Of a DNA stretch of 64,000 nucleotides, positions 9,936 through 45,377 are shown in pieces (positions within the stretch are counted from its first letter, which is position 1; each line of letters starts with the position of its first letter). Position numbers and translations under genes: made by a program. Source of the stretch: an uncultured delta proteobacterium (GTDB lineage Bacteria; Myxococcota_A; Polyangia; Polyangiales; Polyangiaceae); the NCBI GenBank assembly GCA_963841435.1, contig CAWJCS010000002.1, positions 512,001 to 576,000 of the forward strand, given 5' to 3'. Below the pieces are notes generated by a model, which was not told where the DNA came from, made no database searches, and worked only from the letters and a program-made list of their open reading frames with translations.

Positions 9936-10103
9936 GTTCGGGGTTTATGGTCGCGCGGGGGCGATTCGCACGCGACCAGAGTGGGCCGCAGCATTGGCCG
10001 GGGTCGTGCCAAGAGGTCGCCTTCACCGGTGTGCGAGCCGCGGAGTGGGCGCGTACACACGGGGGAAGTCGGCGGAGGGGAGCGGCGTAGTATCCTGTCG
10101 CGC

Positions 10104-11495
10104 ATGAAACTCCAACACTGGTGGGCTCCCTGGGTTTGCGTCGCCTCGTGGGGCCTCGTTGCCTGCGGGGCGAGCTCCAAAGGGTCGGCGTCCGGACAGG
10201 GCGGTGCCGGCGGCAGCTCCAACGCGGGCGCAGGGGCGGGCGGTGTGACCGCAACGGGCGGCAGCGCCGGGTCGAGCGGCGGGGCGGGACGCGGAGGATC
10301 TGGCGGGACAGCCGGCATCGAGATCGGCGTGGGTGGAAGCTCAGGGAGCTCCGGAGTGAGCGACTGCTTCGAGCCGAGCGGCGCGCCAGGAACGCTCGAT
10401 GCGACCTTCGGCGACGGCGGAACTTCGAGGGTCCAGAACCCCGACAGCCAAGACGGGCAGATCCTCCAAGACCTCGCCGCCGACGGCGAGGGGAGGCTCT
10501 TGGTGCTCGGGCTGGACCACGCGGAGATGGTCCTCTACCGGCTCGACGCCGACGGCTCGCTCGATACGAGCTTCGGCACCGACGGATTCGTGATTGCGGC
10601 CACGGACACTGGCAACGTGCTCGCTCTCGACGCTGACGGCAACGTGCTCGCGGGCGGCTCGGACGGCTCCGACGCGTGGGTCCAGCGCTTCACGCGCGAC
10701 GGCACCCCGGACCCGACGTTCGGCGATGCCGGTCGCGTGACGCTCGATTTCGGCACCGGCAACGACCGCATGCTGGCCGTGCTCGTGCAAAGCAACGGTT
10801 CGATCGTCGCTGCCGGTTCGAGCGACACGAATGGCCCGGAGACCGCCACGTTCGTCGTGTCCCTGGCTCCGGACGGTACCCCGCTCACCGATTCGGGTTC
10901 CGTGGGGCCGCTACGGCCGTCGGACCGCCGCTATTACCCCGTGGCGCTCGCGGAGCTACCGGATCACGCGCTGCTCGTGCTCGGCTCCTCGTCTCCTTCG
11001 AGCGGCGGCGCCGGCTACCCGTTTTTGGCGAAGCTCGGTGCCGACGGGGCTTTGGCGACAGACTTCGGCGATGGCGGCATCCTCGAGCTCGGCGACACGG
11101 TCGGCCCCGTCGTTGGGATCGGGCGCGGAGCGGACGGCTCGGTTCTGAGCTTTCAGTTCGGGCCAAAGCTCGCTCTGTTCGCCTACGACGATTCGGGAGA
11201 AAAGACTCCGTTCTCCGCAGTAAGCCCCGTGTCCCCCCTCGGTGTGACGCTCGACTGCGCCGGCAACGTCTTGGTCGCCGGCACCCTCACGAACAACGAC
11301 CTCAACGCCGGTGGCCTCGAGCGCTTCAGCCCATCCGGCACGACCGACCTCACGTTCGGCGACAACGGGATCGCCAGGTACGAAGTGGACGGAGCGCACG
11401 CCGCGCTCGAACGCGTGGTCGTGCTTCCGAGCGGCGCCATCGTCGCCGGCGGCTCCACGCAGGGCAGCTTCGTCGTTCAGCGCTACTTGCCCTGA
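10104..11495 (+). CDS. delta-60 repeat beta-propeller lipoprotein
   Basis: LVAC lipobox, Gly linker, repeated DGSLDTSFGTDG / DGTPDPTFGDAG motifs. Confidence 0.88.
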   Translation: MKLQHWWAPWVCVASWGLVACGASSKGSASGQGGAGGSSNAGAGAGGVTATGGSAGSSGGAGRGGSGGTAGIEIGVGGSSGSSGVSDCFEPSGAPGTLDATFGDGGTSRVQNPDSQDGQILQDLAADGEGRLLVLGLDHAEMVLYRLDADGSLDTSFGTDGFVIAATDTGNVLALDADGNVLAGGSDGSDAWVQRFTRDGTPDPTFGDAGRVTLDFGTGNDRMLAVLVQSNGSIVAAGSSDTNGPETATFVVSLAPDGTPLTDSGSVGPLRPSDRRYYPVALAELPDHALLVLGSSSPSSGGAGYPFLAKLGADGALATDFGDGGILELGDTVGPVVGIGRGADGSVLSFQFGPKLALFAYDDSGEKTPFSAVSPVSPLGVTLDCAGNVLVAGTLTNNDLNAGGLERFSPSGTTDLTFGDNGIARYEVDGAHAALERVVVLPSGAIVAGGSTQGSFVVQRYLP

Positions 11496-11658
11496 GGCCT
11501 TCGCCCCGCTCCCTCACCAGGGTAGTCGGGTGGACTCCGCAAATCTGCCACACCCGGGTGTGGCAGGTTGGCACCGGTCAATCGCGGTGCCGAGACAGGA
11601 CGAGAAGTGCGCGCGAGCTAGTGTAGGCTCTCCGCTGGGCGACGGATAGGTCACCAGG

Positions 11659-14571: not shown

Positions 14572-14919
14572 CGCCATGAGCTCGGCGCTCATCCACCGCC
14601 GATAGCGACCTCTTCGCACGATGGGGTTCTCGCAGGCTTGCAGGGACTCGAACAGTGTCAGGCGGAGCTGCTGTTGGATCGGCTGAGCACCCCCAACGTC
14701 TACGTCTTCGACAACGACGGCGCCGCCGGGTGCCCTTGACTCGTAGCCGTACTTTTCCTGCCCGGTAGCATCGACGGGTGCCGCGCTTCACGCTCGAGCG
14801 AATTCGCCAGCCCAAGCGGAAATGAGGCAGCGATTCGCTGCTTGCGCGAAGGTGACTGCCGAGGCAGGTATCAGGTTACCTTATACGTGTTGTTGCCTAG
14901 CTCAATTGGAGGTACGCCC

Positions 14920-16140
14920 ATGACGGCGAGAAATCTCGCAGGCTGGTGCTCGTCGATCATCGCGGTCGCTTGGTCGCTCGCCGCCTGTGGAGGCACCGAG
15001 CCGACGGCCGATCCAGTTGGGACCGGCGGGGGCGCCACCGGCGGCGCATCGCAGGGCGGGTCCGCCGGCGCGGGCGCGGGCGGTGTGTCCGGCACCGGCG
15101 GCGCCGGCGGCAGCAGCGCAGGGACGGGCGGCGTCGGCACCGGCGGCGCGGGCGCAGCGTCCGGCGCCGGCGGCTCGTCAGCGGCGACAGGGGGATCGTC
15201 CTCCGGCACGGCGGGAAGCGGCGCGGGTGCCGGCGCCGGCGCCGGTGCCGGTGCGCCCGCTGGCGGCTCCGCGAACGGAGGCAGCCAGGGCGGCGGCCGC
15301 GGAGGTCAGGACGGAGGGAGCGCTGGAGCGGCTGCAATGAGCGGCGCCGGCACGGGACCCGGAGGTTCGGCAGGCGGCGGCGCCGGCGGCTCGGGTGGCG
15401 CTGTGCCCGGGATGGGCTGCGGGGCGTCACCCCTGGCGAGTGGTCGCGCGTCGATCAACGTCTCCGGCACCATGCGCGAGTACGTGCTGAAGGTTCCGGA
15501 CGGGTACGACTCGAGCAAGCCCTACAAGCTGATCTTCGCGTGGCACTGGCGCGGCGGTCAGGCGAACGACGTAGTGAGCGGCGGCATCATCGGCGGGCCG
15601 TACTACGGGCTCGAGCAACGCTCCCAGGGCTCGGCCATCTTCGTTGCCCCCGAGGGTATCGACATGGGCTGGGCCAACACGAGCGGGCGCGACATCGCCT
15701 TCCTGAAGGCCATGCTCGACCTGTTCAACTCCAAGCTCTGTATCGACCAGCAGCGCATCTTTTCCACCGGGTTCAGCTACGGCGGCATGATGTCGGATAC
15801 GATCGGCTGCGAGATGGCCGATGTCTTCCGAGCCATCGCGCCCAATTCCGGCGCCCTCTACAGTGGATGCAAGGAGCCGAACGACCACCCGATCGCGGTC
15901 CTGCTGATGCACGGCAACAACGACACGGTCGTGCCGCTCGCCGATGGCCAGGCGGCCCTCGACAAGTTCCTCGGGCGAGATCAATGCGGCTCGACGACGC
16001 ATCCCGTCGACCCGAGCCCCTGTGTCGAATACGAGGGCTGCACGGACGGCTATCCCGTCGTGTACTGCGAATTCTCCGGCGGTCACATGCCATGGAGCTC
16101 TGCGCCGGATACCGTCTGGAAATTCTTCGACCAGTTCTAG
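14920..16140 (+). CDS. alpha/beta esterase (CE1/PHB-depolymerase-like) lipoprotein
   Basis: LAAC lipobox, ~130-aa Gly linker, GFSYGG nucleophile elbow, HGNND, GGH. Confidence 0.88.
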   Translation: MTARNLAGWCSSIIAVAWSLAACGGTEPTADPVGTGGGATGGASQGGSAGAGAGGVSGTGGAGGSSAGTGGVGTGGAGAASGAGGSSAATGGSSSGTAGSGAGAGAGAGAGAPAGGSANGGSQGGGRGGQDGGSAGAAAMSGAGTGPGGSAGGGAGGSGGAVPGMGCGASPLASGRASINVSGTMREYVLKVPDGYDSSKPYKLIFAWHWRGGQANDVVSGGIIGGPYYGLEQRSQGSAIFVAPEGIDMGWANTSGRDIAFLKAMLDLFNSKLCIDQQRIFSTGFSYGGMMSDTIGCEMADVFRAIAPNSGALYSGCKEPNDHPIAVLLMHGNNDTVVPLADGQAALDKFLGRDQCGSTTHPVDPSPCVEYEGCTDGYPVVYCEFSGGHMPWSSAPDTVWKFFDQF

Positions 16141-16202
16141 GCGCCATTGGCTCTCATCACGTCGCCACCGGCACTTGAACGCCTAACCTCGCCGCAGCCC
16201 GC

Positions 16203-16736
16203 GTGAAGCTTCGTTGGCCTCCAGTCGCTCGCAGCGGCGGGCGCGAGCTTCCGCGGGCCATCGGCGCCGGAACCGCACTGCGGCGTCTGGCGCCGATTGC
16301 CATCGCCGTGCCCCTGCTCCTCGGCTGCGGCAAAGACGACGAGCCGGGTGTCCTCGGGTCACGGAGCGACGTGAAGACGACGCCTGGCGTCTACGACGGC
16401 TACGAGATCATCGACGAGTGCCAGCTCCCGTCCAACACGTACGGCATCTTGGGCACCGGTTCGAACTGGTACTCCGATGTCGCCCCGGAGGGCGAGGGTA
16501 GGGCCGACGCGGTCGCCGAATTCGCGACGGTCCTGGTGCGGCCGGCGCTGGCGGACGTGAAGTCCGTGGGTGGGGTCGGTCTCGGTAGCTCGTGCACGTT
16601 GAACGCCGGGGCGACTGCGATCATGAACGACTGGCGCGACGTGGACCGAGCGTTCGCTCGGGCCGGCCGGCTCTTGCTCGAGCACCACCTGCGAGAAGAG
16701 ATCACGCTGCGCGTCACCTCCGCCCAAGCCGACTGA
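16203..16736 (+). CDS. hypothetical lipoprotein
   Basis: LLGC lipobox; protein-like composition. Confidence 0.65.
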   Translation: MKLRWPPVARSGGRELPRAIGAGTALRRLAPIAIAVPLLLGCGKDDEPGVLGSRSDVKTTPGVYDGYEIIDECQLPSNTYGILGTGSNWYSDVAPEGEGRADAVAEFATVLVRPALADVKSVGGVGLGSSCTLNAGATAIMNDWRDVDRAFARAGRLLLEHHLREEITLRVTSAQAD

Positions 16737-17254
16737 GGCGACCATTCCACGCCCGCCCTCTTCCCAGTTCATTTTTCCCCTGGCGTTCGCGCCAAGGGGT
16801 TTCGCGGTCACGGGGCGGTGCAGGTGTGGCAACTGCTGTCGCCGACGCAGCCGTCGCACGAGCCGGCATCGCAGGCACCCTGATCGCACTCGAAAACGCC
16901 GCGGCGCCCGCGAGGGCGTTTGCGGAGTCGCCTCGATGAACCAGGGAGCTTGCGACGATGAATACCTTCCCGGTTCATCGACCTCAGAGCGCCGGTTTCG
17001 CGAGGCCTCTCTCCTTCTCGACGTTGAGGACCGCCTTGAGCGTGTCGCGCGGCCACCACAGAGCCGCCCTGTCGGGATCCTTCAGAAAGAACTTGTTGAC
17101 CTGAAGCCTTTTCCACGCCTTGGTCGGCATTGGCTTGTACCCGGCGACCAGCGACAGGTAGGCCATCTGCGACGGTGTCAGAGGCGTCGTCGCGTCCGGG
17201 CAGCGTCAACTCATCTGGGAGGCGCCGACTGAGAGCACCATCGGTACCTTCAAA

Positions 17255-17431
17255 GTACCCGCGCGCGGCAAAGCGCCCCGTGCCCATCCCGAACTCGAAC
17301 ACGTGTCGCGCCGACTCGAAGCCTGCATGCGCCACGAGGTCGGCGAGCGCCGCGTCTTCGCAGAACGATTGTGTGCCCTGCCGAGCGCCGAACGAATCGT
17401 AGAAGGATCTGGCGGCGTCGCGCGTCAACAT
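17255..17431 (-). pseudogene. class I SAM-dependent methyltransferase N-terminal fragment
   Basis: FYDSFG...EDAALADLVAHAGF...VFEFGMGTGRFA (motif I), after which the similarity stops. Confidence 0.6.
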
Positions 17432-17571
17432 CGTCGATTCCCTTCATGCCGCGGGTTGTCCCACCCGTTGCTGCGGCGACGAAGCATGCCGCCGAGCTCG
17501 AGAGCGCAACGTAGCAGGCTTCGACCCAGCCGCGGGTCTCAGTCGCCAATCGCGCGCAGGTCTCTTGGGAC

Positions 17572-18945
17572 CTACGGACAGGCGGCCGTGTCGTCGTTGC
17601 CTTCGCAGGGATCGCAGGCGTTGGCGCGCGCGTCGATGGCGTCGACCTCGCACTGAGGAAGCTTCGGGTTTTGCGCGATGATCAGGGTCGTCACGTCAAC
17701 CAACGACGAGAGCGTACCGATCGAGGTGAGCGCGTCGTTGCCCGTGATGACGAGCTCGGGAAGGGACTCGAGTGCTTCGAGATCCACCGTGGCGAGACTC
17801 GAGTGGCTGGCGATGAGAAGCTCGTCCTGCATACGTTCGAGAGCCGGAAGGCTGATCGAGGTGATGGTGGTGCTGGCGATGATGCTGGAGGGGCCAACCA
17901 TGGTCTTCAACGCGGGCAGCGAGACGGACGGCAGCGGGTCGTTGCCCGAAATGAGCAGGCCTTCGCTCAGCTCTTGCAACTGGTCCAGACCGTCCAGGCT
18001 GGTGAGCGCCGGGTTGCTGGCAATGGTCAGGGCGATGCCCGAGGTCCAACCGCGCAGCCCCGCGAAGCTCTCTAGCTTCGCGTTGTAGGTGACGGAAACG
18101 GCCGTCGACCCGAACACGGCATTTTGCAGTTCGGCGAAGTTGCGGAGCGCGTCGCAGTGCGTGACTCTGAAGTTGCCGTCAATCTTCCTCAGATCCTCCA
18201 AGCCGGCCAGCGACTCGAGCCCGGCTGGCCCCACCAAGCTCAGCCCGCCCCCGACGTAGCTCAGAGAGTCGAAGCCCTTGAAGCTTTTCAGGGCCTCGGT
18301 GTCGTCGATCCCGAGCGAGCCTTTGATGACGCGGATCTTCTCGAGGCCGGCAAGGCTCGTGAGCTCGGGTCCGGAGAGGAGCACGCTGCCCTCGATGACT
18401 TCGCACCCCAAGGTGGTGAGCGCGTAAACGTCGGAATCGTTGGCGAGCACCAGCGGGTCGTCCAGATCGCACACTCGGAGGCACCGGCTCGGCTCGATGT
18501 CCGCAAAGCATTCTTCGTTCGTGCCGCAATCGTCCGGCTGACACGTCGCGCCGCCTGCCATGCCGGCGCTACCCGCCATGCCGGCGCTCTCCTGCGTGCC
18601 AGCGCTACCCCCCGCGCCGCCCCCATTGCCAGCGCCACCCCCCATCCCAGCGCCAACGGCACCGCCCGCGTTCTCGGCGCCGGCGTCGCCGCCCGCGCTC
18701 GTATTGCCACCGCTACCACCGCGCCCTGCCGTGGCGCCGTTCCCTGCGGCGGCAGTCGCCCCGCTCCCTCCGGCAGCGCTCTTGCCGCTCCCTCCGCCGG
18801 TGCTCGACGTGCCGCCTGAGCCACCGCCATCGCCCCCGGAGCCCGATCCCGAACCGGCCTCGCTCGACCGGGTGGAGTGCCCAGCGCAGCCCACGCTGGA
18901 AAGCGAAGCCGTGACCAGCAGGCCCACCCAATTGCGACCCTTCAT
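17572..18945 (-). CDS. receptor-L-domain / leucine-rich lipoprotein
   Basis: SVGC lipobox, Gly linker, CEVIEGSV and repeated LxSLxGLExLxxIxGxL units. Confidence 0.85.
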   Translation of the reverse strand: MKGRNWVGLLVTASLSSVGCAGHSTRSSEAGSGSGSGGDGGGSGGTSSTGGGSGKSAAGGSGATAAAGNGATAGRGGSGGNTSAGGDAGAENAGGAVGAGMGGGAGNGGGAGGSAGTQESAGMAGSAGMAGGATCQPDDCGTNEECFADIEPSRCLRVCDLDDPLVLANDSDVYALTTLGCEVIEGSVLLSGPELTSLAGLEKIRVIKGSLGIDDTEALKSFKGFDSLSYVGGGLSLVGPAGLESLAGLEDLRKIDGNFRVTHCDALRNFAELQNAVFGSTAVSVTYNAKLESFAGLRGWTSGIALTIASNPALTSLDGLDQLQELSEGLLISGNDPLPSVSLPALKTMVGPSSIIASTTITSISLPALERMQDELLIASHSSLATVDLEALESLPELVITGNDALTSIGTLSSLVDVTTLIIAQNPKLPQCEVDAIDARANACDPCEGNDDTAACP

Positions 18946-30643: not shown

Positions 30644-30764
30644 TCTTCGTAAATAAGACTACTTCATTGCCGGCGGGGATTCGAGGAGTCGTTGCTGCTT
30701 CAAGCACCCGCCGAGTCCGGGGTCGGCGTCGAGAGCGCCTGAAAAACGAAGTGCCAGCCAGGTC

Positions 30765-31450
30765 GTCAACGGCCGTGACCGGCGACAGCTCGAGCGGTTG
30801 TGCCGCTACATCACACGGCCTCCCGTTGCTCAGGATCGCCTCCAGCGAGCCCGACGACCTGATGGTCCGGCTCGTCGCCAGCCGTTTTCCCGGTTCGTTC
30901 TTCCTTGCCGCCCAGGTTGGGGTGCCGGAGCCGACCGGGTTTCACCCGACGCGGCCCATGAGACCGAGCGCTCGGGTATCGGCACACAGAAAGCCGAGTG
31001 TCCGTACTCTGTCCTTGGTGCCTCACTGAGCGATGCACGCGTCCTGCATCGCGCGCCAGAATCGTCTGCGCGATGGCCTCCGCTCCCGCAGCGCTCGGAA
31101 GGATGCCGCTCGCATCCGTGAACGCCGAGAGGTGGTCGGCGCAGGTGGGGCGAAGATCGACGAGATGGCAAGGAACCGGGCTCCGCGCCGACGAAGACGT
31201 CGGCTCCCCCGACGCGCGGGGTAGCTGCAACCGGTCGCGCCCGCTAGCGTGCGCTCTTGACGCCGACCCGAGCGGGCGTCGAGGACGTGGCGCGCCGCAC
31301 GGCAGCCGGTATCGAGAAGATCCTCCGACCACGCAACCGTGCTCCACATCGCTCCTGTGTTCGGAGCCGCGACACCCGCCCACCTGCAGTCCCCTCCAAT
31401 CCTGCCCCCGGGCTTCCTCTCGGTTTTCGCGGTTCGATTTTCTTATGCGC
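30765..31450 (+). mobile_element. IS91/ISCR-family remnant 1 (internally deleted transposase plus oriIS end)
   Basis: GRDRRQLERLCRYITRPPVAQDRL joined to EPDDLMVRLVA; ends GCGGTTCGATTTTCTTATGC. Confidence 0.75.
31188..31450 (+). repeat. 263-bp direct repeat copy 1 (IS91-type right end)
   Basis: Matches 38421-38682 with one indel and one substitution seen. Confidence 0.92.
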
Positions 31451-31471
31451 ACCGTATTCTGTGCGTTGGCC

Positions 31472-32623
31472 TCAACCTATCTCCTCCAGGAGATCGACCA
31501 GTGACGGCGTCCAATGGCTCCCGCCAACGAGAACCTTCGCAGAAAGCTTTTCCGAGCACTTCTCGTGCGGAGCCAGCATGCGGGTTGCACAGAACTGGTA
31601 CTCCCAATTGGCGGTCACCGGGTGCATGCACGCAGCGAGCACCTCGAACTGCTCGGCTGAGTAGTACCGACTACAGGCATCGTTGATCGACGCGCGAGTC
31701 TTCTGAAAGTCAACGCGCGGCGGATCGATCGCGCGCCGTACATTCTTGCACTCGATCCTAAACGGTTAACGCTTGTATGAGATCTGAAAATCAGGTGGAC
31801 CATCCTGGTCAAGGGCCTGTACGTCCTCAATCCCGGACAGTGCGGACAGGTGCTTGGCGAGGTGGTGCTCCGCAACGCGCCCGCGAACCGCGACGACTAG
31901 CCTCCCCGTTCCGGCCAAGACATCAAGTAGCTCTCGCGCGGATAGGCCCAGCTCCCGCTCGAGGCCATGGGTAGCGTTGGGCTCCGGAGCGCCAAGCTCG
32001 GCGATCTTGTCGCCAACAAGGAGCCGCTCGGAGGCGTCCAAGCCCGAAGCGACGCGCTCGAATTCGACGTATCGCAGGAAATTCCGTGGGGCGAACGCGC
32101 AGACCGCCTCGGTCTGAAAGCTCTCGAGAGGGGAGACGTCCTTGCGGCGGGCGACGGACCTCTCGCGCTCCCAGCCGTGCCACCCAAGCTGTCTCGCTCG
32201 CTCGAGGTCGCCTTCCTTGAATTCAACTGACACCGAGAACCATGTCGGCGCGTGCATCAGCGGATCGACCGCGACGAACAGGTCCATCTCTTGGTGAACG
32301 CCGAAGAAAAGCGTCGTCACCTTACGGGTGGGATCGACGTAGATGTCGTGGTAGCGGCTGAAGTCGCTGCCGTACTTGATCTGGAAACGGTGCTCGTCCT
32401 TGGGTTAACCCTTGCCGTCGTTCTTGCGCCCGTACTCGTTCGCGGTGAACGCGTAGCAGATGATGGAGCGGCGCTCTCCGCTCGGTAGCTCGATCAGGTA
32501 CTCGTACGGAGCCACCGTGGGGTTAGGGGATCGGAGCACGCGCGCTCCGCAGGTCACCAAGGCGGCCGTGATGCGCGCGACGTTCTGATGACCGTCCACC
32601 CCGGAGTAGCGCTCGACCCGCAT
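31472..32623 (-). CDS. putative restriction endonuclease (methylase-associated N-terminal domain plus PD-(D/E)xK nuclease), two in-frame TAA
   Basis: One frame: ...YAFTANEY...KG*PKDEHRFQIKYGS...RGRVAEHHL...DGPPDF...KR*PFRIECKN...VDFQKTR...SRYY...FEVLAAC...LLEEIG; TAA at 32405-32407 and 31766-31768. Confidence 0.75.
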
Positions 32624-32756
32624 CCTTCCAGACTAAACCACAGGCTCGCCGGCCAAGCACCGAGCCCGTGGGGCTCCGCTCCGGTGTGACATTCAAAGAC
32701 CCGGGAGCGGAATGCCGGCGACGTAGCCGAGCACCTCTGCTATACGCATGATCAGC

Positions 32757-34000
32757 ATGTCGAAGCCGCGGGTCATCAGCCTCTTCTCCGGCGCTGGCGG
32801 GCTCGATTATGGCTTCGAAGCTGCGGGATTTGATACGGCCGTAGCTTTGGAGCTCGACCACGACGCCTGCGAAACCCTGAGAACCAATCGCCGTTGGGAG
32901 GTCATCGAGCGGAGCATCTTCGAGGTGCCGACCGCAGAGGCCTCCTTGAGCGCGGGGGGCTGAAGAAGCGTGAGGCAAACGTCCTCATCGGCGGCCCGCC
33001 CTGCCAGCCGTTCTCGAAGGCGGGGTACTGGTCGAAGGGCGATTCGCTGAGGCTCGATGATCCGCGCGCGAGCACGCTGAGCGCGTACATGCGCGTCGTT
33101 GAGGAAGCGCTGCCGCAGGTGTTCCTGCTCGAGAACGTCGAGGGTCTTGCTTACGCAGGTAAGGATGAGGGGCTTCACCTGCTGCTCGAGTGCGTGAAGG
33201 ACATCAACGCGCGCACGCGGAGCAACTACAAGCCAGTGTTCAAGATTCTCCGCGCGGTCAACTACGGCGTCCCGCAGCAGCGCGAGCGCGTGATCATGAT
33301 CGCCTCTCGTGACGGGGAGCAGTTCAGCCACCCGACGCCGACGCACTGCGATCCGGACGCGCCAGCCCCTCTCCTCGCCAAAGTCAACCAACCGTTCTAC
33401 CGAACCGCCTGGGACGCGATCGCAGATGTGAAGCCGGATACGGACGAAGAGCTGGAGATGCGCGGGAAGTGGGCGGGCCTGTTGCCTTCAGTCCCCGAAG
33501 GTCAGAACTACCTTTGGCACACCGATCGAGGCGGAGGGCGACCGCTCTTCGGCTGGCGACGACGCTACTGGAGCTTCCTGCTCAAGCTTGCGAAGAATCG
33601 CCCGTCGTGGACGATCCAGGCACAGCCGGGTCCGGCAATCGGCCCATTCCATTGGGAGAATCGCCGCCTCAGCACGCGTGAGCTGTGTCGCCTGCAGACG
33701 TTTCCTGACGACGTGAACATCTGCGGCGGACGGACCTCGATTCAGCGCCAGCTCGGCAATGCCGTTCCGTCGCTCTTGGGCGAGGTTGTCGCGCGTGAGA
33801 TCGCTGTGCAGCTGCTCGGAAAGCGTCGCAACCGGACGCCTCCTCGTCTGCTTCCGCCGGATCGCTCCCCTGCTCCGCCTCCCGAACGGGTACGCGCTGT
33901 ACCCCGGGAGTTCATGGAGCTGGCGGGCGAGCACACGGCGCACCCAGGGACGGGGCTGGGCAACGCAGCGGTGCTTCGGCTCAGCGACTCTTGGGCCTGA
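32757..34000 (+). CDS. DNA (cytosine-5)-methyltransferase, frameshift near 32942
   Basis: SLFSGAGG (motif I), GGPPCQPFS (IV), ENVEG (VI), YGVPQQRER (VIII), RLQTFPD (IX), QLGNAVP (X). Confidence 0.92.
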
Positions 34001-34655
34001 TCCGTTTCGCGCACAGCGGCTCGAGAACGCAGCGCTCGCACCGTGGGTGCACGCCGCACGTCTTTCGGCCGTGAGCGACCATGGTGACGTGCAACGAGTA
34101 GCGGAGACTCGGGTCAATCTTGCCCTCGAGCTCGGCGCTGCGACGCTCGTCCGGATGCTTCCCACCGGCCACCCATCCTAGCCGCTCGGAGACGCGCCAC
34201 ACGTGCGTGTCCACGGGCAGCACGTAGCGACCGAGCGAATACATCAGGACGCAGCGCGCAGTCTTGGGACCGACGCCGGGCAGAGACACGAGGTAGCTCA
34301 TGGCGTCCTCGTTCGACCAGGTGTGCAGAAAGCGCAGCGAGGTCGTTCCGCGATCCGCATGGATCTTCTTTAACAGAGCCTGAAGGAGCGCCACCTTCCG
34401 CTTCGCAAAGCCACCGAACCGGATCAGAGTCTCGACCTCTCCGCCCGGGGCTCGCCTGACCCGGTCCCAGCTTCGATACGTCTTCCAAAGCGCCGAGAAA
34501 GTACGCCGATACTCAGCCTCTCGCGTCTGTGTGGAAAGGACGATGAAGACAAGCTCAGCAAGCGGATCACGCTTGTTATGGAGCCGTGGACGGCCGTACG
34601 TCGAGCGGAGCACCTGCTCGATATCGTTGGGGCTGGGAAGGAGGTCCGCGGCCAA
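33981..34655 (-). CDS. endonuclease III-like HhH-GPD DNA glycosylase
   Basis: LSTQT, LPGVGPKTA, PVDTHVWRV, C-terminal Fe-S motif CGVHPRCERCVLEPLC. Confidence 0.9.
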   Translation of the reverse strand: MAADLLPSPNDIEQVLRSTYGRPRLHNKRDPLAELVFIVLSTQTREAEYRRTFSALWKTYRSWDRVRRAPGGEVETLIRFGGFAKRKVALLQALLKKIHADRGTTSLRFLHTWSNEDAMSYLVSLPGVGPKTARCVLMYSLGRYVLPVDTHVWRVSERLGWVAGGKHPDERRSAELEGKIDPSLRYSLHVTMVAHGRKTCGVHPRCERCVLEPLCAKRIRPKSR

Positions 34656-34735
34656 CAGGCACGAGATCTAGCTGCCCCAGCGCGCCCGGTCACGCCACCT
34701 TGCGCCCGACCGAGAACCGGTGGAAGGCTCGACGG

Positions 34736-35011
34736 ATGAGCGCCGAGCTGCCCCGCGCCCCGCTCCTCGAGGCGCCCATCATCCAGTACCTCGCATCCAA
34801 GCCCGGCCCGCAGGAGATCGCGGAGATCGACACCGCCGTCGCGCGAGAGCTTGCGCTGACGCCCGAGCAACTAGCACTGCCGCACAACCCCGCAAAGGCG
34901 GGCGGGCGCAGCGAGTTTGCCTACCGAATGGCGTGGGCTCGGACCCGCCTGAAGGCGAAAGGCGCCATCGAGAATACGGGCCTCGGCAAATGGGCGCTGG
35001 TAAAAAAATAG
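34736..35011 (+). CDS. stand-alone Mrr N-terminal winged-helix protein
   Basis: VARELALTPEQL...RSEFAYRMAWARTRLKAKGAIENTGLGKWAL. Confidence 0.8.
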   Translation: MSAELPRAPLLEAPIIQYLASKPGPQEIAEIDTAVARELALTPEQLALPHNPAKAGGRSEFAYRMAWARTRLKAKGAIENTGLGKWALVKK

Positions 35012-35024
35012 GCCACCGTCTGCG

Positions 35025-37412
35025 CTAGCCGTCCTCTGCGTCAAGCTCCGCATCAAACATCGTCGCGATCTGCATGCGCCCGATCGCAATGATGGCGTGT
35101 CGCATCCAGATGTCCGACGGCTTCTCCTCGGGCGCGACCTTTCCCTTTGCGTCATTCAGCAAGAACATCCCGTACGACACTGCGCCGGCGTAGCGATCCT
35201 TCAGCGACTCCACCGCGTCTTTGGATCCGGACGCGCTGTCGGCGCGCCGTGTGATGGCCTTGCGCAGATCGGGGAAGCTCTCGTTGAGACGGAATACCAA
35301 CGATTCCGCGGAGTCCGTCACGTCTCCCGCTTCCTCGCCCGTCCATTCTGGCGGCCACATGCGCTTCAGCTCCTCGCGCTCCTCGTCGTTCGCTGCGTCG
35401 CGCTCGTGCCTGACCCACGTGATGTCGGGCACCCCGCTGTCGGCCGGAGGGACTGTATCCGGGCAGCTCGAGGGCTGAACTACTTGAATCGTAGCCGTGG
35501 CCACGAGTTCCCCCGCAGCAGCGTTGAGCAACCGAACGCGGACCGTGTACTCACCAGGCTTCGCTTCCTCGGAGGAGCCAAACACCAGCCGCGCGCGACC
35601 ACCTCGCACCGAGCCGGTCCCCTTGTGTCGCAGTCCGCCTGGATCGGGCCCGGCAATCTCCACGACGAGATCTCCGCTCGACTCGTCCAGATAGCCGTTC
35701 TTCGCGTCGATCGCGAGCACCAGATGCCCACCACGCCCTGCTCCGATCTCGTGGCGGGAGTTGATGATCTCGATCTTCGTGGGCACGGCTGGGAATGCGG
35801 AATCATCCATCTCTGGAGGCTTCACGCGCCCCCGAGGCTTGGTGATTGGCGGTCGATCCGCCCGACGACCGGGGCGAGCGCCACCGTCGGTCGCTCCAGC
35901 CAAGTTTCGCCCCATCCCTGCGAGATGGCGCCTGATAAGCGTTGCCACCTTCTTCCGCACGCTATCTTTCACCTTTGCCGAAGCTCGCGCTAGCTCCGCG
36001 TTCTTCGCTTCCTCTTCGAGCGCACGAAAATCCTCGCCCTCGAGGTATTCGGCCAGCGCATTGAAAATGGCATCGCTGACCTCGTTGTCTCGCTGCTGCT
36101 CGCGACCGGACGGGAACAGGTGCCGCTTCGCTTCAGCGGTGAGCTCATCAGCTGCAACTTGAACCACCATCCGCTTGGCTAGAAAGCCGAGCCGACACTC
36201 CTTGAGGAAGTCGCGCCCCCGCTGTCCGTGGCGTTGCCCGGACAACGTCAGAGTGATCGTGTGCTCAGCGCGAACGTAGCTCTCCGCGTTCGCCACTCCG
36301 CCAAGGACCCATGCGCGCACGCGGATCCGGCCCAGCGATTCGCCGGCATCCAACACATCGAGCATCAGCTCGTCCGAGAAGCGGAGGAACGGCCGCTCCG
36401 AGCCAGGATCCTCCACGTCGTCTCCAGCGCGCAAGCGTGGCTTCGTGGGCAGCCCGTCGAGCACCGCGGCGTTGCCCTTGATGATGCGGCCAGTGGACGC
36501 AGCCTTTGCATCCCCGTGCAGGTCCTTCTTCCTGTCGCCCGTGATGTGAATCGGAAGTGGCGGATCGTAGAGCGCCGAGTTCAGGAGAGCCCACAGACCG
36601 GTCTTCTGCTGGCGATACGCGGCAGAGTACCGATGGAGGTCGTAGCGGACGTGTGTGATCCGGGTGCCGTGGGCAAGCTCGAACGCACCAGCTACCTCGC
36701 GCGGCCGTGCACACAAGATCGCATGCTTGGGTCCGCATAGGTACTCGTATGTGCCGCCCTTGATCTTGCTCGGCGTGTAGCGCACCACGGTGAAGCCAAC
36801 GAGGTCGTCTTCACCATCGAGCAGCTGCTTGGCACGCCGCGAGGCGATGATGGTGTACTCGCTATGCATCAGGGTCGTCGCGCCGCCATGGCCATACTTT
36901 CCGATGAGGTACGGCTTCTCCCGCTTCTCGCTTTGGTGCAGGCTCAGCAGCGAGGTCGAGAACGCGCTCGGGTGCTGCCCCATCCCGTGGTCCTCAACCA
37001 AGATGGTGGGTCGATCAGGATCTCCGCTGTCCGTGAGGTGCACGTGCACGGCCCCCTCAGCGATGGAGCGGACCTTCTTATCGTCCTTCATTGCGGTGAC
37101 GCCCCGCGGCGGCAGGCCAAACCAGCGCGCACCGGCCTCCGCCGGCGTCCCAGGCCGATCCCTGGCGTGCAAGCGCGCCTCCAGCTCGAAGCACGCCTCG
37201 ATCCCGTTCACCACCCGCTCGATGAGCTGCGTTGGCGCGTCCTTACCTAGCTCGATGGGGCCGTCGTTCGAAGGATTGCCGCCGACCGGGCACCACGTGA
37301 AGTCCAGCTCTCCCTGGATCTCCTTGATCACCTCCCGCGTTGCGTCGTTCGTGGTGACGCTCAGCAGGCGAGCTGCGAGAGCCTTACCAAGTGGATGCAG
37401 GCGATCGGTCAT
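35025..37412 (-). CDS. GHKL (MORC/Hsp90-like) ATPase, 795 aa
   Basis: ERVVNGIEA (N box), VEDHGMG (G1), GKYGHGG (G2), HGTRI (G3). Confidence 0.8.
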   Translation of the reverse strand: MTDRLHPLGKALAARLLSVTTNDATREVIKEIQGELDFTWCPVGGNPSNDGPIELGKDAPTQLIERVVNGIEACFELEARLHARDRPGTPAEAGARWFGLPPRGVTAMKDDKKVRSIAEGAVHVHLTDSGDPDRPTILVEDHGMGQHPSAFSTSLLSLHQSEKREKPYLIGKYGHGGATTLMHSEYTIIASRRAKQLLDGEDDLVGFTVVRYTPSKIKGGTYEYLCGPKHAILCARPREVAGAFELAHGTRITHVRYDLHRYSAAYRQQKTGLWALLNSALYDPPLPIHITGDRKKDLHGDAKAASTGRIIKGNAAVLDGLPTKPRLRAGDDVEDPGSERPFLRFSDELMLDVLDAGESLGRIRVRAWVLGGVANAESYVRAEHTITLTLSGQRHGQRGRDFLKECRLGFLAKRMVVQVAADELTAEAKRHLFPSGREQQRDNEVSDAIFNALAEYLEGEDFRALEEEAKNAELARASAKVKDSVRKKVATLIRRHLAGMGRNLAGATDGGARPGRRADRPPITKPRGRVKPPEMDDSAFPAVPTKIEIINSRHEIGAGRGGHLVLAIDAKNGYLDESSGDLVVEIAGPDPGGLRHKGTGSVRGGRARLVFGSSEEAKPGEYTVRVRLLNAAAGELVATATIQVVQPSSCPDTVPPADSGVPDITWVRHERDAANDEEREELKRMWPPEWTGEEAGDVTDSAESLVFRLNESFPDLRKAITRRADSASGSKDAVESLKDRYAGAVSYGMFLLNDAKGKVAPEEKPSDIWMRHAIIAIGRMQIATMFDAELDAEDG

Positions 37413-37563
37413 CAGTTCCCCCTTCAGTGCAACAGGCGCAGGGTAGGCCAGCCACGAATTCTAGGGTGGACGCTCTGTGCGCCGCAAGAGGTGAGCCAGC
37501 CGCGTGCATGCGCTGCGCGGTCGAGTAATCGACACCGACGCCCAGGGAGCTAAACTTGTGACC

Positions 37564-37803
37564 ATGCGTTCCGTCGAAGCTATCGCCGTGGAGGCTCTGT
37601 CGCTGCCCGCCGACGACCGGGCCGCTCTCGTCTTGCGCCTTGCTGAGAGCCTCGACGAACAGCACGATTGCGACGGCGAGGATGCCTGGGCTGCTGAAGT
37701 GGCGGGACGCATCGAGACGATCACGGCGGGAACTGCCGAGACGATCACGATTGCCCAGGCGCTCGCCGGAGCTCGCGCCCGATTGTCGACGCGTCGTGGC
37801 TGA
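37564..37803 (+). CDS. putative addiction-module antitoxin component
   Basis: EALSLPADDRAALVLRLAESLD...AWAAEVAGRIE...G.AETI. Confidence 0.8.
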   Translation: MRSVEAIAVEALSLPADDRAALVLRLAESLDEQHDCDGEDAWAAEVAGRIETITAGTAETITIAQALAGARARLSTRRG

Positions 37804-37974
37804 GATTCTCCGACCCCGCCCGCCTCCTCCTCTCCCCCAACCCCATCCGAATCAACCAATCCTTCCGCCCGACCAGCGCCCGCGCCGTCCCCGGCGATAC
37901 AGCGCGACCAGCTCCGCTTCAGGCTCGCACCGTGAGTCACCCCTCGCACCGTGCGTCGCGCGCATCACGCTCCG

Positions 37975-38682
37975 GTGACGCCGCCGGCACCGGCGCCGCC
38001 GGGCGGGACCGCAGACAGCTCGAGCGTCTCTGTCGCTACGTCACCCGCCCGCCGGTCGCCCAAGACCGGCTCGAGCGGCTCGCCGACGGCAAGCTCGAGC
38101 TTCCGACTCAAGCACCCGTGGAAGGACGGCACGTGCGCGATCCTGCTCGAGCCCGATGACCTGTTGGTCCGGCTGGTCGCCGCGGTGCCCCACCGTACTT
38201 CCACTTGGTCAGGTACTTCGCCGTGCTCTCGAGCCACTCGCGACTGCGAAAAGAAGTCGTGCCACACCCGCCCGCTGATCCGAGCGCGGATGTTCCGCCG
38301 CCGGCGCCGGGCGACCAGCTCGAGCTCGACCTCGACGCCGACGGTGACGCGCCGGCTCCGAGAAAAAGATGGGCGTGGTTGCTGACACATGTGTTCGCTG
38401 CCGACCTTGATACGTGCCCCCCGACGAAGACGTCGGCTCCCCCGACGCGCGGGGTAGCTGCAACCGGTCGCGCCCGCTAGCGTGCGCTCTTGACGCCGAC
38501 CCGAGCGGGCGTCGAGGACGTGGCGCGCCGCACGGCAGCCGGTATCGAGAAATCCTCCGACCACGCAACCGTGCTCCACATCGCTCCTGTGTTCGGAGCA
38601 GCGACACCCGCCCACCTGCAGTCCCCTCCAATCCTGCCCCCGGGCTTCCTCTCGGTTTTCGCGGTTCGATTTTCTTATGCGC
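37975..38682 (+). mobile_element. IS91/ISCR-family remnant 2 (frameshifted Y2 transposase C-terminal half plus oriIS end)
   Basis: DRRQLERLCRYVTRPPVAQDRL, LKHPWKDGT, LLVRLVAAVP, HLVRYFAVLSSHSRLR, WAWLLTHVFAADLDTCP; same terminal motif as remnant 1. Confidence 0.85.
38421..38682 (+). repeat. 262-bp direct repeat copy 2
   Basis: Matches 31188-31450. Confidence 0.92.
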
Positions 38683-38753
38683 CAACCCAATTGGCGCCCC
38701 GGCGTCCCTCACCGGCGACGACCGATGAGCCCGGTCGGCAAGCAGCAGGCCGA

Positions 38754-41261
38754 TTACGGCTGATAGGGGCGTGGCGCCACCGCGGGCGTCGTGCCCTCGA
38801 CCCAGGCGGGGCTGCCCTGGGAGGTGATGGTCACGCTGGAGCTGGTCAAGCCCGGGCGACGTGGCCTCGATGACCGAGGTGCCGGAGTAGTAGGTGCGGA
38901 ATTCAATCGCGGCCTGGCCGTCGCGGATCGCGATGTCGGACGCCGAGCCGCTGCCGGGCGGCGTGAACGTGATGCTCGGCCCGGTCGGGAACTCGCCGGG
39001 GCCGGACTTGATCGTGAGCGTCACGGTGGCGGTGTTGCTGATCGGCTTGCCGTCCGAGTCCACGACGGTGACCAGGAGCCATGCGTCCTGCGTGCCGTCC
39101 ACCGCGGACAGCGTCGTCGTGCTCGACGTCAGATTCAGGCCCGCGGCCGTGCCCGCGGTCGGCCAGGTCGGCGGCGGGACGTTCGCGTAGGCGTTTCGAT
39201 ACCAGTAGTACGACTCGCTTCGGGATGCGGAAGTAGTCGACGATGCCCGAGTTGATGTACTGCGTGCCCATCTGGCTGCCGTAGTCGAACATGCACCACC
39301 GGGAGATTCCGCTGCGCCACGCGGGTTGGGCGGCCATGCCGTTCGACACCGTCAGGTTGCCCCAGCCCGGATCGTAGTTGCCCGGGCGAGTCGAGCTCAC
39401 GTCGGCGCCGTATTCGGACACCATGTTGGGTATGCCAGGGTCGTCGTAGCCCACGCCGTCGCCGTTGTAGCCGGCCACGTCGCCCAGCGTGCCAGGCTCG
39501 GTGCCGCCGATCTTGGACTGCGCGCCGCCGATGGCGGCCGGCCGTCCCGTGGGCGCGGGATCGAGCTGGTGGGTCAAGGCGACCGCCTTCTTGAGCAGCG
39601 CGATCACCCTGTCCGCCGGACCGCCGCCGTTGAAGAAGTCCTCGTTTCCCATGCTCCACACGATGATGCTCGGGTGATTGCGATGGATGCGGATCATCTC
39701 CGTGAGGCTCGCGAGAACGTTGGCGTCGTACTCGTCGAAGTCGGCGGACGTGCTCGGGTAGGCGCCGCTGTAGGACCAGCCGCCCGGGCCGCCGCCGAAG
39801 CCGCCCCAGAAGCAGTTTTCCGACCAGAACAGGATGCCGAGCTCGTCGCACGCGTCGGCGAAGGCCGGGCGCCTTCGGATAGTGCGAGCCGCGGATGAAG
39901 TTCATGCCCGCGTCCTTGACCATCTTGACGTCGCGGTAGAGCGCCGAGTCGCTCACGCCGATGCCCCAGCCGGCATGGTCCTGATGGACGTTGCCCCCTT
40001 GAATCCAATAGTGCGCGCCGTTCAGGGAGAATCCTTGTGTACGCCGACCAGCTGAACCAGCGAAACCCGAACGTGCGTCGTGAAGTCGTCGACGATCCCC
40101 ATGTCGTCGGACAGGTACGACAGCGCCCTGTACAGCGTGGGATGGTCGGGGTGCCAGAGCGACGGGCTGCTGATCGCTGGCGTGGTTTGGTCGAAGGTCA
40201 CCGTCTTGCCCGCGTCGATCTGTCTGCTGAGACGAGACGGTGGCGACCACCTTGCCGTCCTTGTCGACGATGTCGGTCTTCAGCGTGGCGTTGACGGCGG
40301 CGGCGCGGTCATGTTCTGCACCTCCGTCTTGATCTCCACGGTGCTGGACGAGCCCGAATTGGTCGCGAGCGTGGGCGTCGTGACCCACGTGCCGTACCAG
40401 GCGACGTGAAGCGGATCGGTAACGACGACGTTCACGTCGCGATAAAGACCGCCCTGGAACGTGTGGTCGCCGGTGATCGGCGGGAGCTGCGCGTTCCAGT
40501 TGTTGTTCAGGCGAACGGCCACGACGTTGTCACCGGTCTGGATGGCGGCGCTGATCGTCGATGGAGAAGCCGTTGTAGCCGCCGATGTGCTCTCCGACCT
40601 GCTTGCCGTTGACGTAGATCTGCGCCTGGTCGAACGCCGCCTGAAACTCGAGAAACACGCTCTTTTCCGCCCAGTTCGCCGGCACGGTGAAGTGCTTTCG
40701 GTACCAGCCGTACCCGACGTAGAACTTCGCGTTGATGAAGTACGGCAGATTGAACGAGTGCGGCAGGCCTATATCGTTCCACGAGGCATCGTCGAAATCG
40801 GTCGCGTCCGCGCCCGTCACGTCGCTACGTTTGAACTTCCACGATTGGTTGAAGTTCTGAATCTCGCGGGCGCCGGTGGGCTCTGCACCGCCAGTCCCCC
40901 CCGAAGCAGCGGCGCCCGCCTGTCCTCCCTCAGCGGCAGCGCCAGCCGCGCCACCGCTCCCTGAGAGCCCGCCCGCGGCCGCGCCGCTATTGCCGCCCGC
41001 GGCCGCGCCGCCGTTGCCGCCGCCGGCCGTGCCTCCGGAGGCGGAGACCCCGCCGCTGGCCTGGTTTCCCCCTGTGGACTGCATGCCACCGGCCGAACCA
41101 CCGGTGGCGGCGTTCGAGCCTCCGTTTCCCTGGGATTGGCCGCCGCTGCCGCCGGCAACGCCGCCATTGCCACCTGACGCTCCGTTTTGATGGCTGTCTC
41201 GCTTGGACCCACTGCAAGCAAGCAACGCCATTGCGATCATGAGGGGCAGTGCGCGATGCAT
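38754..41261 (-). CDS. GH2 beta-galactosidase-like lipoprotein with multiple frameshifts
   Basis: LLAC lipobox, Gly linker, FNQSWKF, GWYRKHF, GGLYRDV, NVHQDHAGWG, NFIRGSHYP, RNHPSIIVWSMGNE, VSEYG, GIVDYFRIPK, spread over several frames. Confidence 0.85.
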
Positions 41262-41705
41262 CGGATTTCCCATCTCGTGTCGAGTCGAGCCCCTGGCGAC
41301 TACCGCAGGTCGAACACTTCGTCGGTCTCTTGGAACAACGTCGCGCCGCTCTTCTGGGCTGTCAGGACGAGGTAGCCGCCCCCCGGGACCTGGATCGGGG
41401 GCCTGGATCGCGGTCTCGACGAGCGAGTGCGGGATGGAGCGGCGCATGCCCCAGCAGAAACCCGCCAGCGCGGTCGGACGGGTCACTTTTCTCGGTGGGT
41501 GACCTGCAATCACGGGGCTGTGAACCCGGGATCTCGTGCGCGTAACATAGTGGAATAATGAAAGAAATCGTGGCCGCTTCTCGTTCGGTCGGTTGCGACG
41601 CGAGGGCGGTCGAGCGGCAGCTCGAGGCGGCGTTCACGCCGGCGGTGCATCGAAATCCCCGAGCCGTCGGTGGGACATGAGGGGTGTTGGTAGGAGACGG
41701 AAATC

Positions 41706-45037: not shown

Positions 45038-45088
45038 TGGCGGGGTTCGGCGCTTGGAGGCGGAGCGCGGCGGGGTGCGGATTTGTTG

Positions 45089-45175
45089 CGGAGAGGGAGG
45101 GATTCGAACCCTCGGTACGGTTGCCCGTACACATGATTTCCAATCATGCACCTTCGGCCACTCGGTCACCTCTCC
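45089..45175 (-). tRNA. tRNA-Ser(GGA)
   Basis: GGAGAGG acceptor, CATGA-TTGGAAA-TCATG anticodon arm, long variable arm, GGTTCGAATCC; CCA not encoded. Confidence 0.96.
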
Positions 45176-45290
45176 TGGGGCCGGTCGGCCTCGCGGGGAT
45201 GCGGGGCCGGCCTTCGAACTAACGGGAGGAGCTCGCCTCCTCCCACGCGACGGCGCAGGCGTGCACGCACGCGTCCGCAACCACGCGCGG

Positions 45291-45377
45291 CGGAGAGAGT
45301 GGGATTCGAACCCACGGTACCCTTACGAGTACACCTGATTTCGAATCAGGCACCTTCGGCCACTCGGTCATCTCTCC
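45291..45377 (-). tRNA. tRNA-Ser(CGA)
   Basis: GGAGAGA acceptor, CCTGA-TTCGAAA-TCAGG anticodon arm, long variable arm, GGTTCGAATCC. Confidence 0.96.

Follow-up and report, generated by a model that had tools for sequence, protein, structure and literature searches.

Very-short-patch repair of the Dcm-Vsr type is located beside Type II restriction-modification systems, and one archaeal GGCC system includes a T:G glycosylase, Mig.MthI. Restriction-modification operons have been predicted in which an ATPase with GHKL and S5 domains accompanies a cytosine methylase, a nuclease of restriction fold and Vsr (Iyer, Abhiman and Aravind 2008, PMC2292703, in the passages of that paper drawn on here). 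In this study, we analyzed a 64-kb stretch of DNA (the window; contig 2, positions 512001-576000) from an uncultured delta proteobacterium, whose 7.78 Mb genome is assembled in 6 contigs with a G+C content of 68.7%. The window carries an islet of about 7.2 kb with genes for a putative restriction nuclease, a cytosine-C5 (C5) methylase, a glycosylase, a small Mrr_N protein and a 795-amino-acid ATPase. The islet probably stacks two modules around the one C5 methylase, a restriction-modification-repair cassette and a paraMORC-like ATPase. Among known systems, it comes closest to the ATPases of paraMORC type that the same passages of PMC2292703 describe from predicted restriction-modification operons.

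The islet and its borders comprise the following features (positions within the window; the cut-off of PF04986 is 20.9 bits):

30765..30848, + strand: left C-terminal fragment of an IS91-family Y2 transposase (PF04986 positions 99-126, 18.9 bits, below the cut-off)
31188..31450, + strand: left copy of the 263-bp direct repeat bounding the islet (alignment to 38421-38682)
31472..32623, - strand: putative restriction-nuclease pseudogene with an MTaX1 domain and a PD-(D/E)xK motif (PF20296, 56.4 bits against a cut-off of 25)
32748..34000, + strand: C5 cytosine methylase pseudogene (PF00145, 130.4 bits against a cut-off of 22, E 1.3e-37, profile positions 58-322 only)
33981..34655, - strand: endonuclease III (EndoIII)-like HhH-GPD glycosylase, frame intact (PF00730, 36.9 bits against a cut-off of 26.2)
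34736..35011, + strand: stand-alone Mrr_N winged-helix protein of 91 amino acids, frame intact (PF14338, 43.7 bits against a cut-off of 29.5)
35025..37412, - strand: 795-amino-acid ATPase with GHKL domain and S5-type transducer, frame intact (predicted fold and invariant motifs)
37564..37803, + strand: orphan antitoxin gene, Unstab_antitox (PF09720, E 9.1e-10)
37998..38231, + strand: right C-terminal fragment of an IS91-family Y2 transposase with an internal TGA (PF04986 positions 100-177, 24.8 bits, above the cut-off)
38421..38682, + strand: right copy of the 263-bp direct repeat (alignment to 31188-31450)

A previous sequence-only reading of this DNA had placed five tightly packed genes here on alternating strands (- + - + -). 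Profile and fold evidence bore out the five genes at this location, and the packing is indeed tight: 124 bp separate the nuclease from the methylase, the methylase and glycosylase genes overlap by 20 bp, and the next two gaps measure 80 and 13 bp. The antitoxin gene, missing from that list, is a sixth islet gene.

The window ATPase resembles MORC and paraMORC proteins, as far as the cited part of PMC2292703 describes them, in combining a GHKL domain with an S5-type transducer, in keeping its ATP motifs intact and in having a C-terminal extension particular to its family. Its setting near a cytosine methylase, a putative restriction-fold nuclease and a predicted T:G repair gene is shared with the loci described there, as is its sporadic and mobile distribution. 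In contrast, an SF2 helicase, reported in the same passages for about 70% of MORC neighbourhoods, is absent from the window; the repair gene is a glycosylase, unlike the Vsr of the described operons; and the C-terminus is predicted to be immunoglobulin-like (Ig-like) and helical, unlike the nuclease or TIR C-termini described there. The ATPase also differs from the Pfam GHKL models, to which it has no match while 15 of 54 relatives match PF13589; the comparison with paraMORC1-5 is one by description only. A literature search found no experimental test of a GHKL-ATPase/cytosine-methylase cassette.

As in classical Type II pairs, the nuclease gene has the C5 methylase gene as its strict neighbour (in 78 of 80 loci, see below), the two being divergent or tandem, and the cassette is mobile. 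Unlike classical Type II enzymes, the window nuclease has an N-terminal MTaX1 domain and no solved-structure match by sequence. Unlike a functional Type II system, both window genes are pseudogenes.

The composition of the cassette was assessed in a census of 80 nuclease loci, in genomes from many phyla. In 78 loci the orthologous C5 methylase was no more than 1 kb from the nuclease, and the remaining two loci end at the gene. Vsr was found within 5 kb of the nuclease in 36 loci; four loci had an HhH-GPD glycosylase nearby and two had the ATPase. The glycosylase matches were strong in L036 (the locus of genome G228), L060 and L078, where the gene occupies the same slot without Vsr, and weak in L062, where Vsr is also present. 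Judged by gene content, the common cassette consists of nuclease, methylase and Vsr, and the window holds a minority form with the glycosylase replacing Vsr.

No Vsr (PF03852) was detected in the islet open reading frames (ORFs) scanned, a set that excluded the C-terminal 98 residues of the nuclease and the antitoxin ORF. The fold of the glycosylase differs from that of Vsr, and the slot alone is common to both. Like the repair enzymes of Dcm-Vsr and Mig.MthI, it is encoded next to a C5 methylase, and it shares with Mig the HhH-GPD fold with an iron-sulphur (Fe-S) cluster. Alignment to PDB entry 8a5f shows that the hairpin lysine (GVGPKTA) and the C-terminal Fe-S cysteine cluster are kept. The nearest solved structures are those of Deinococcus EndoIII-1 (best E 2.4e-33; PDB 8a5f/4unf, E 1e-33 to 1e-32) and EndoIII-3, with E values from 1e-33 to 1e-25. 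In contrast to Mig, the EndoIII lysine is retained, and the archaeal T:G glycosylase of PDB 1kea ('possible G-T mismatches repair enzyme') was matched with only E 1e-5. Given the retained EndoIII lysine, the glycosylase may also act as an apurinic/apyrimidinic lyase. The protein scored below the NCBIfam cut-offs both for nth (TIGR01083, 83.9 versus 211.7 bits) and for the DR2438-type monofunctional family (NF053634, 138.1 versus 400). A literature search found no paper joining Vsr, HhH-GPD and mismatch glycosylase.

The ATPase had no match in Pfam, NCBIfam or PADLOC, with no PF13589 hit even at E up to 10, and its profile gave no hits to PDB sequences at E ≤ 10. An AlphaFold model calculated from 14 sequences (mean predicted local distance difference test, pLDDT, of 79) shows a GHKL domain and S5-type transducer at residues ~45-475, a helical linker, an Ig-like beta-sandwich at ~540-650 and a helical C-terminus. 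Foldseek matched the model to GyrB, ParE, Hsp90 and Topo VI-B with E values of ~1e-10 to 1e-11. VIA scores ranged overall from Z 15.5 to 19.6 over ~300 aligned residues: Z 19.6 for TRAP1 (root-mean-square deviation, rmsd, 4.2; 300 residues aligned), 17.2 for MORC3, 16.7 for GyrB and 16.2 for both MutL and SMCHD1, with Topo VI-B also matched. On the predicted fold, the protein belongs to the GHKL plus S5 transducer (GHL) class. The label 'MORC' given to it by the sequence-only reading finds support only at the level of this class; the structural scores do not separate MORC3 from Hsp90, GyrB and MutL.

Residues E65, N69, D141xGxG145, G171, G176-177 and G249-T250 are invariant in the 14 sequences; we take them to be the N (ExxxN), G1 (DxGxG), G2 glycine-rich loop and GT boxes. 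A model of residues 531-795 reached a pLDDT of 68, and its Ig-like domain resembled S-layer, Big_2 and filamin domains (Z ~10, up to 10.8). The last ~130 residues, which are largely helical, had no fold match in the VIA search. No nuclease-like pattern of conserved acidic and lysine residues was visible in the C-terminal part, and an Atlas search with it returned unnamed clusters only.

A word-indexed search with 13 hits had made the ATPase look extremely rare. This impression was overturned by an exhaustive profile search, which yielded 2587 cluster representatives, mostly full-length, at E ≤ 1e-3; of these, 1049 also passed E ≤ 1e-30. A ten-sequence profile gave no confirmed loci in genome contigs and four short loci in metagenome contigs. 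PF13589 (HATPase_c_3, cut-off 25 bits) matched the 15 sampled relatives mentioned above at E ≤ 1e-3, four of them above the cut-off, and one of 14 close homologues (E 0.073). PADLOC-DB 2.0 returned no families for the window ATPase and its 13 homologues; among the 54 wider relatives, 50 had no hit and four had marginal hits. Tiamat (TmtA) is likewise an ATPase of GHL type, for which a role in defence against phages is proposed in the portion of the preprint cited here (bioRxiv 10.64898/2026.09.30.754977). In contrast to Tiamat itself, the window ATPase had no hit to the PADLOC TmtA model, and two of the 54 relatives had marginal ones (E 7e-4 and 9e-3, covering ~50-65 residues of the GHKL core). 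The ATPase family is large and is not covered by Pfam, NCBIfam or PADLOC.

Nine ATPase contexts were readable and seven of these were informative, L001 and G761 being too short to judge. A DNA methylase lay within 3.5 kb of the ATPase in all seven. Both a C5 methylase and an MTaX1 nuclease stand beside the ATPase in the window, in G228 (with the glycosylase) and in L055 (with Vsr and a DndB-like gene). The near-identical pair L002/L003 has a divergent C5 methylase by the ATPase, the contig ending inside the methylase. A convergent N6/N4 methylase was found in L004, G368 and G582, together with an upstream partner of 336-406 amino acids that starts like a ribbon-helix-helix protein. The upstream partner has a coiled coil and a HARE-HTH domain in L001-L003 and is DndB-like in L055, and G228 has no clear upstream gene; in the window, the convergent Mrr_N gene is the sole small DNA-binding protein near the ATPase. 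The DNA-binding partner of the ATPase thus changes from context to context.

L055 comes from a Vicinamibacterales metagenome-assembled genome, where positions 12504-16422 encode the nuclease, the C5 methylase, Vsr, a 522-amino-acid DndB-like protein and the ATPase homologue. The latter is 54% identical to the window ATPase over 599 aligned residues, in an ORF of only 618 amino acids that overlaps the DndB-like ORF by 67 bp. In G228 (also L010), a GmrSD-type Type IV restriction gene and a REase-ARP/PDDEXK_13 nuclease gene follow directly after the intact cassette, at 15573-18247, which makes the G228 locus a larger defence island.

Four distant homologues, each deposited as 'hypothetical protein', were found on plasmids of Rhodococcus, Ensifer, Hymenobacter and Devosia (L114-L117), with 24-26% identity over the ATPase half only. 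Their neighbours are annotated, as deposited, as DndB, PAPS-reductase family, DUF4007, class V aminotransferase/cysteine-desulfurase-type, DUF262 and SIR2 proteins, which suggests a possible link of the ATPase family to phosphorothioate-type modification islands. SspFGH was considered as the identity of the plasmid homologues and rejected, since the literature, in the parts cited here, describes Walker A and FtsK-like proteins instead.

In the C-terminal part of the nuclease, an alignment of 20 sequences shows no variation at D278 (GxPDF) or at E291 and K293 (ECKN), and this GxPDF...ECKN arrangement is the pattern of PD-(D/E)xK restriction nucleases. The MTaX1 domain at its N-terminus is described by the Aravind group as a potential discriminator of modified DNA that is frequent in restriction-modification systems (in the cited part of PMC10853773). 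Read through with X, the nuclease shares 64% identity along its entire length with homologues of ~380 amino acids, and 50% identity with the G228 gene, which is intact. A word-indexed search returned 1053 homologues, and PF20296 was the sole Pfam domain in all 120 listed. Atlas gave weak leads to the restriction-enzyme families MjaV, DpnI and SmaI (scores ≤ 0.85), and the profile had only two matches, both non-significant, among PDB sequences. The central 212-residue fragment had no PADLOC or NCBIfam match in a scan that left the C-terminal 98 residues outside.

Two TAA codons break the reading frame of the nuclease gene, one at codon 73 (32405-32407) and the other at codon 286 (31766-31768). 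Both align to arginine in homologues and are at least two bases away from the CGA/CGC codons found there; the codon 73 arginine is CGA in two of three homologue DNAs. Both stops also lie within the heptamer GTTAACC (hexamers 31765-31770 and 32404-32409). GTTAAC occurs 106 times in the genome versus ~549 expected from base composition, and the 64-kb window contains two sites, both inside the nuclease gene. The tetramer TTAA is scarce as well, with 449 copies per 7.78 Mb. Based on the genome's own TAA contexts, the chance of two TAA triplets with identical four flanking bases is ~0.011.

The shared GTTAACC context could reflect a site-directed mutational process and not chance. A common precursor such as GCCGACC, converted to GTTAACC via C-to-T and G-to-A transitions only, is conceivable. 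The coincidence was noted post hoc and may be due to chance. A systematic conversion or base-calling artefact changing GTCGAC to GTTAAC was rejected because the presumed precursor GTCGAC is abundant (4316 copies). Two further genomic GTTAAC sites that break long frames were also set aside, their translations being Arg/Ala-rich and non-coding in appearance.

The methylase was additionally recognized by TIGR00675 (dcm) with 115.2 bits against a cut-off of 100.65. It has motif I (FSGAGG) as well as motif IV (PPCQPFS), in different frames. A comparison with four homologues places a single-base indel near 32937-32963, and the first frame terminates at a TGA at 32961-32963. Consistently, a tblastn match with the G228 methylase divides into two frames. 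The frames of the ATPase, the glycosylase and the Mrr_N protein are open. As its nuclease has two nonsense codons and its methylase a frameshift, the nuclease-methylase cassette is defunct in this genome, if the assembly is right. Presumably, the nuclease was lost before or together with the methylase.

The start codon of the Mrr_N gene was confirmed, and the protein matched the PADLOC model of Type IV methyl-directed restriction (E 1.2e-6). Its sole homologue, 39% identical, is encoded directly after the methylase in G552, which has no ATPase homologue. A two-sequence profile detected no further copy in other loci at E ≤ 0.01 (0 of 80 nuclease loci). The likelier role of Mrr_N is to assist or regulate the restriction-modification pair in a lineage-specific way.

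With regard to origin, the two IS91 fragments are both short C-terminal pieces and are 72% identical to each other over 95 nt. In their wider extent, the remnants span ~30753-31187 on the left and 37983-38420 on the right, and each precedes one copy of the 263-bp repeat. Sequences related to the left remnant recur elsewhere in the genome, and those related to the right one are numerous. The two repeat copies are 99-100% identical (100% and 99% in two blocks), differ by one indel and one substitution, and are the only full copies in the genome. The G+C content of the islet is 64.4%, compared to 68.0% in the window and 68.7% in the genome, and its genes have a G+C content at third codon positions of 0.75-0.78. 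The foreign composition and IS91 bracketing seen by the sequence-only reading were confirmed by the G+C content, the two Y2 fragments and the repeats.

The ATPase gene was detected in none of the 13 other genomes searched from the same genus. It was found in at least two other genomes among 400 of the order and in at least three among 400 of the phylum, one of these weak (E 1.2e-4); both searches used a stricter first pass, which makes the counts lower bounds. A comparison of the islet DNA with 200 genomes of the family found nothing closer than ~71% identity, over the methylase, and plasmids held no near-identical match. No match to the ATPase protein was found in phages. Given the lower G+C content, the pair of transposase fragments and the direct repeats of 263 bp that are nearly identical, the simplest reading is that the islet was horizontally acquired as one piece of mobile DNA. 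IS91-type one-ended transposition and recombination between IS ends are candidate routes.

Several other features of the islet and its surroundings were recorded. Other genomes of the family contain DNA that matches the antitoxin gene. No intact toxin gene lies between it and the right IS91 fragment; by eye, the stretch after the antitoxin resembles the start of a ParE/RelE-type toxin, severed by the IS remnant. The ORF at 30811-31452 (-) was rejected as a gene, having no family match and falling in the repeat and IS remnant. The ORFs at 37965-38708 (-) and 37461-37949 (-), also without a family match, appear non-coding. The IS91-family Y2 transposase domain has 21 matches genome-wide, several in near-tandem clusters (C6:167-190 kb, C4:545-568 kb and C2:17-31 kb). 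Just beyond the islet, a GH2 gene at 38903-41513 (-) is broken into at least three frames, with its Glyco_hydro_2_C and Glyco_hydro_2_N matches in separate ORFs. Two tRNA-Ser genes (anticodons GGA and CGA) at 45088-45377 (-), ~6.4 kb past the islet, show no sign of use as an integration site.

The analysis shows gene identities, breaks, co-occurrence counts and folds, and the biochemical roles that follow are all inferred. The methylase would mark a specific site, and the MTaX1 and PD-(D/E)xK protein would cut unmarked DNA. The product of the third gene, usually Vsr and here the EndoIII-like glycosylase, would, judging from its position, repair the T:G mismatch that arises from 5-methylcytosine deamination. 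The ATPase, in which no nuclease domain is recognisable, would by its fold be a DNA clamp that dimerises under the control of ATP; its contexts tie it to DNA modification. It could read the neighbouring modification as a mark of self and act on unmarked DNA, either by bringing in a nuclease or by blocking that DNA itself. By analogy with what is proposed for paraMORCs in the cited passages of PMC2292703, the ATPase would most likely rely on the neighbouring mark and serve as a second arm of restriction type, accessory to the first.

A number of points weigh against this two-module interpretation. From the cassette side the link to the ATPase is loose, with the ATPase in only two of 80 cassettes. 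The order of decay is reversed in L004 (~2195-2280) and in G368 (L011, ~10050-10400), where the ATPase is frameshifted shortly past the G1/G2 boxes and the methylase is intact; such ATPase-first decay is the usual order for a restriction component. An ATPase restricting unmethylated DNA by itself should be self-toxic beside a dead methylase. The intact ATPase next to a dead methylase argues that it is not self-toxic on unmethylated DNA alone; its action may depend on the nuclease, or its function may be in repair, like that of MutL. The putative nuclease is assigned from its motif and the weak Atlas leads, and its C-terminal 98 residues are covered only by the Pfam column of the 120 listed homologues. 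Finally, the Mrr_N and ATPase genes are convergent and not co-transcribed, and the gene breaks are read from the assembly consensus alone.

A bolder proposal, which we regard as possible and put forward tentatively, is that the ATPase family is a nuclease-free, plug-in restriction arm for whichever modification is made nearby (5-methylcytosine, N4/N6 methylation, possibly phosphorothioation). An interchangeable partner (HARE-HTH, ribbon-helix-helix-type, DndB-like, possibly Mrr_N) would read the mark, and the ATPase would clamp or compact unmarked DNA without cutting it.

The sequence-only reading had suggested that the five genes may be a single, undescribed composite anti-phage system. Its view of a restriction-modification-like islet of foreign origin agrees with the identities of the nuclease, the C5 methylase and the repair gene; the single composite system does not agree with the wider survey. 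That the five genes form an obligate system, working and moving as a unit, is quite unlikely in our view. Four of the five families do occur together in the unrelated Myxococcota genome G228, in the same relative orientation, and the IS91 fragments and 263-bp repeat bracket the islet as a whole. However, the nuclease-methylase pair is self-contained and widespread: against the methylase in 78 of 80 nuclease loci stand two loci with the ATPase, four with the glycosylase and none with Mrr_N. The ATPase in turn pairs with N6/N4 methylases where neither nuclease nor glycosylase is present, and Mrr_N recurs only in G552, with a restriction-modification pair free of the ATPase. As to novelty, neither the ATPase nor the 212-residue nuclease fragment has a PADLOC match, which favours a composite system outside the named ones; yet the class has been predicted since 2008, according to the cited passages of PMC2292703. 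The three breaks themselves might be assembly or base-calling errors in a cassette that functions in the living organism. The methylase break is a single-base indel, the consensus rests on no read mapping, and the fragmented GH2 gene next to the islet could mean local low quality. This is very unlikely nonetheless, since each TAA differs by at least two bases from the homologue arginine codons (CGA/CGC), which is unlike a typical consensus error, and long genes nearby are intact (795 amino acids for the ATPase; 973 amino acids at 11650-14571).

MutL stimulates Vsr in E. coli, and the ATPase could be a MutL-like repair matchmaker that forms, with the glycosylase or Vsr, a private very-short-patch-type module limiting C-to-T changes at methylase sites. 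The ATPase adjoins Vsr in L055 and the glycosylase in the window and G228, its frame is open despite the dead nuclease and methylase, and its fold matches MutL with Z 16.2 (rmsd 4.0, 285 residues, 9n2k_B; E. coli MutL entries 15.5-15.7). The pairing of MutL with nucleases in general is discussed in part of PMC2292703. This alternative is nevertheless unlikely: the three ATPase contexts with N6/N4 methylases show neither Vsr nor glycosylase, the distant plasmid homologues lie among DndB, PAPS-reductase and DUF4007 genes, and the cassettes with Vsr (36 of 80) have it without such an ATPase. Highly improbable is a modification-dependent, Type IV-like module of Mrr_N and ATPase, which on arriving came into conflict with the C5 methylase, so that loss of restriction-modification was selected. 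The PADLOC Type IV match of Mrr_N, the adjacency of the two genes (13 bp) and the confinement of the breaks to methylase and nuclease would fit such a clash. The two genes are convergent, though, Mrr_N occurs without the ATPase in G552, and ATPase homologues stand beside intact methylases in G228, L055, L002/L003 and G582.

The window copy is decayed, and its value is as a pointer to the intact orthologues in G228 and L055. The locus indicates that a glycosylase can replace Vsr in a very common nuclease-methylase cassette, unnamed in the libraries searched. The main interest lies in the large, unannotated family of methylase-associated ATPases. If these ATPases are truly a nuclease-free restriction arm, they would widen the list of defence mechanisms and provide a bacterial model for MORC-type DNA clamps.

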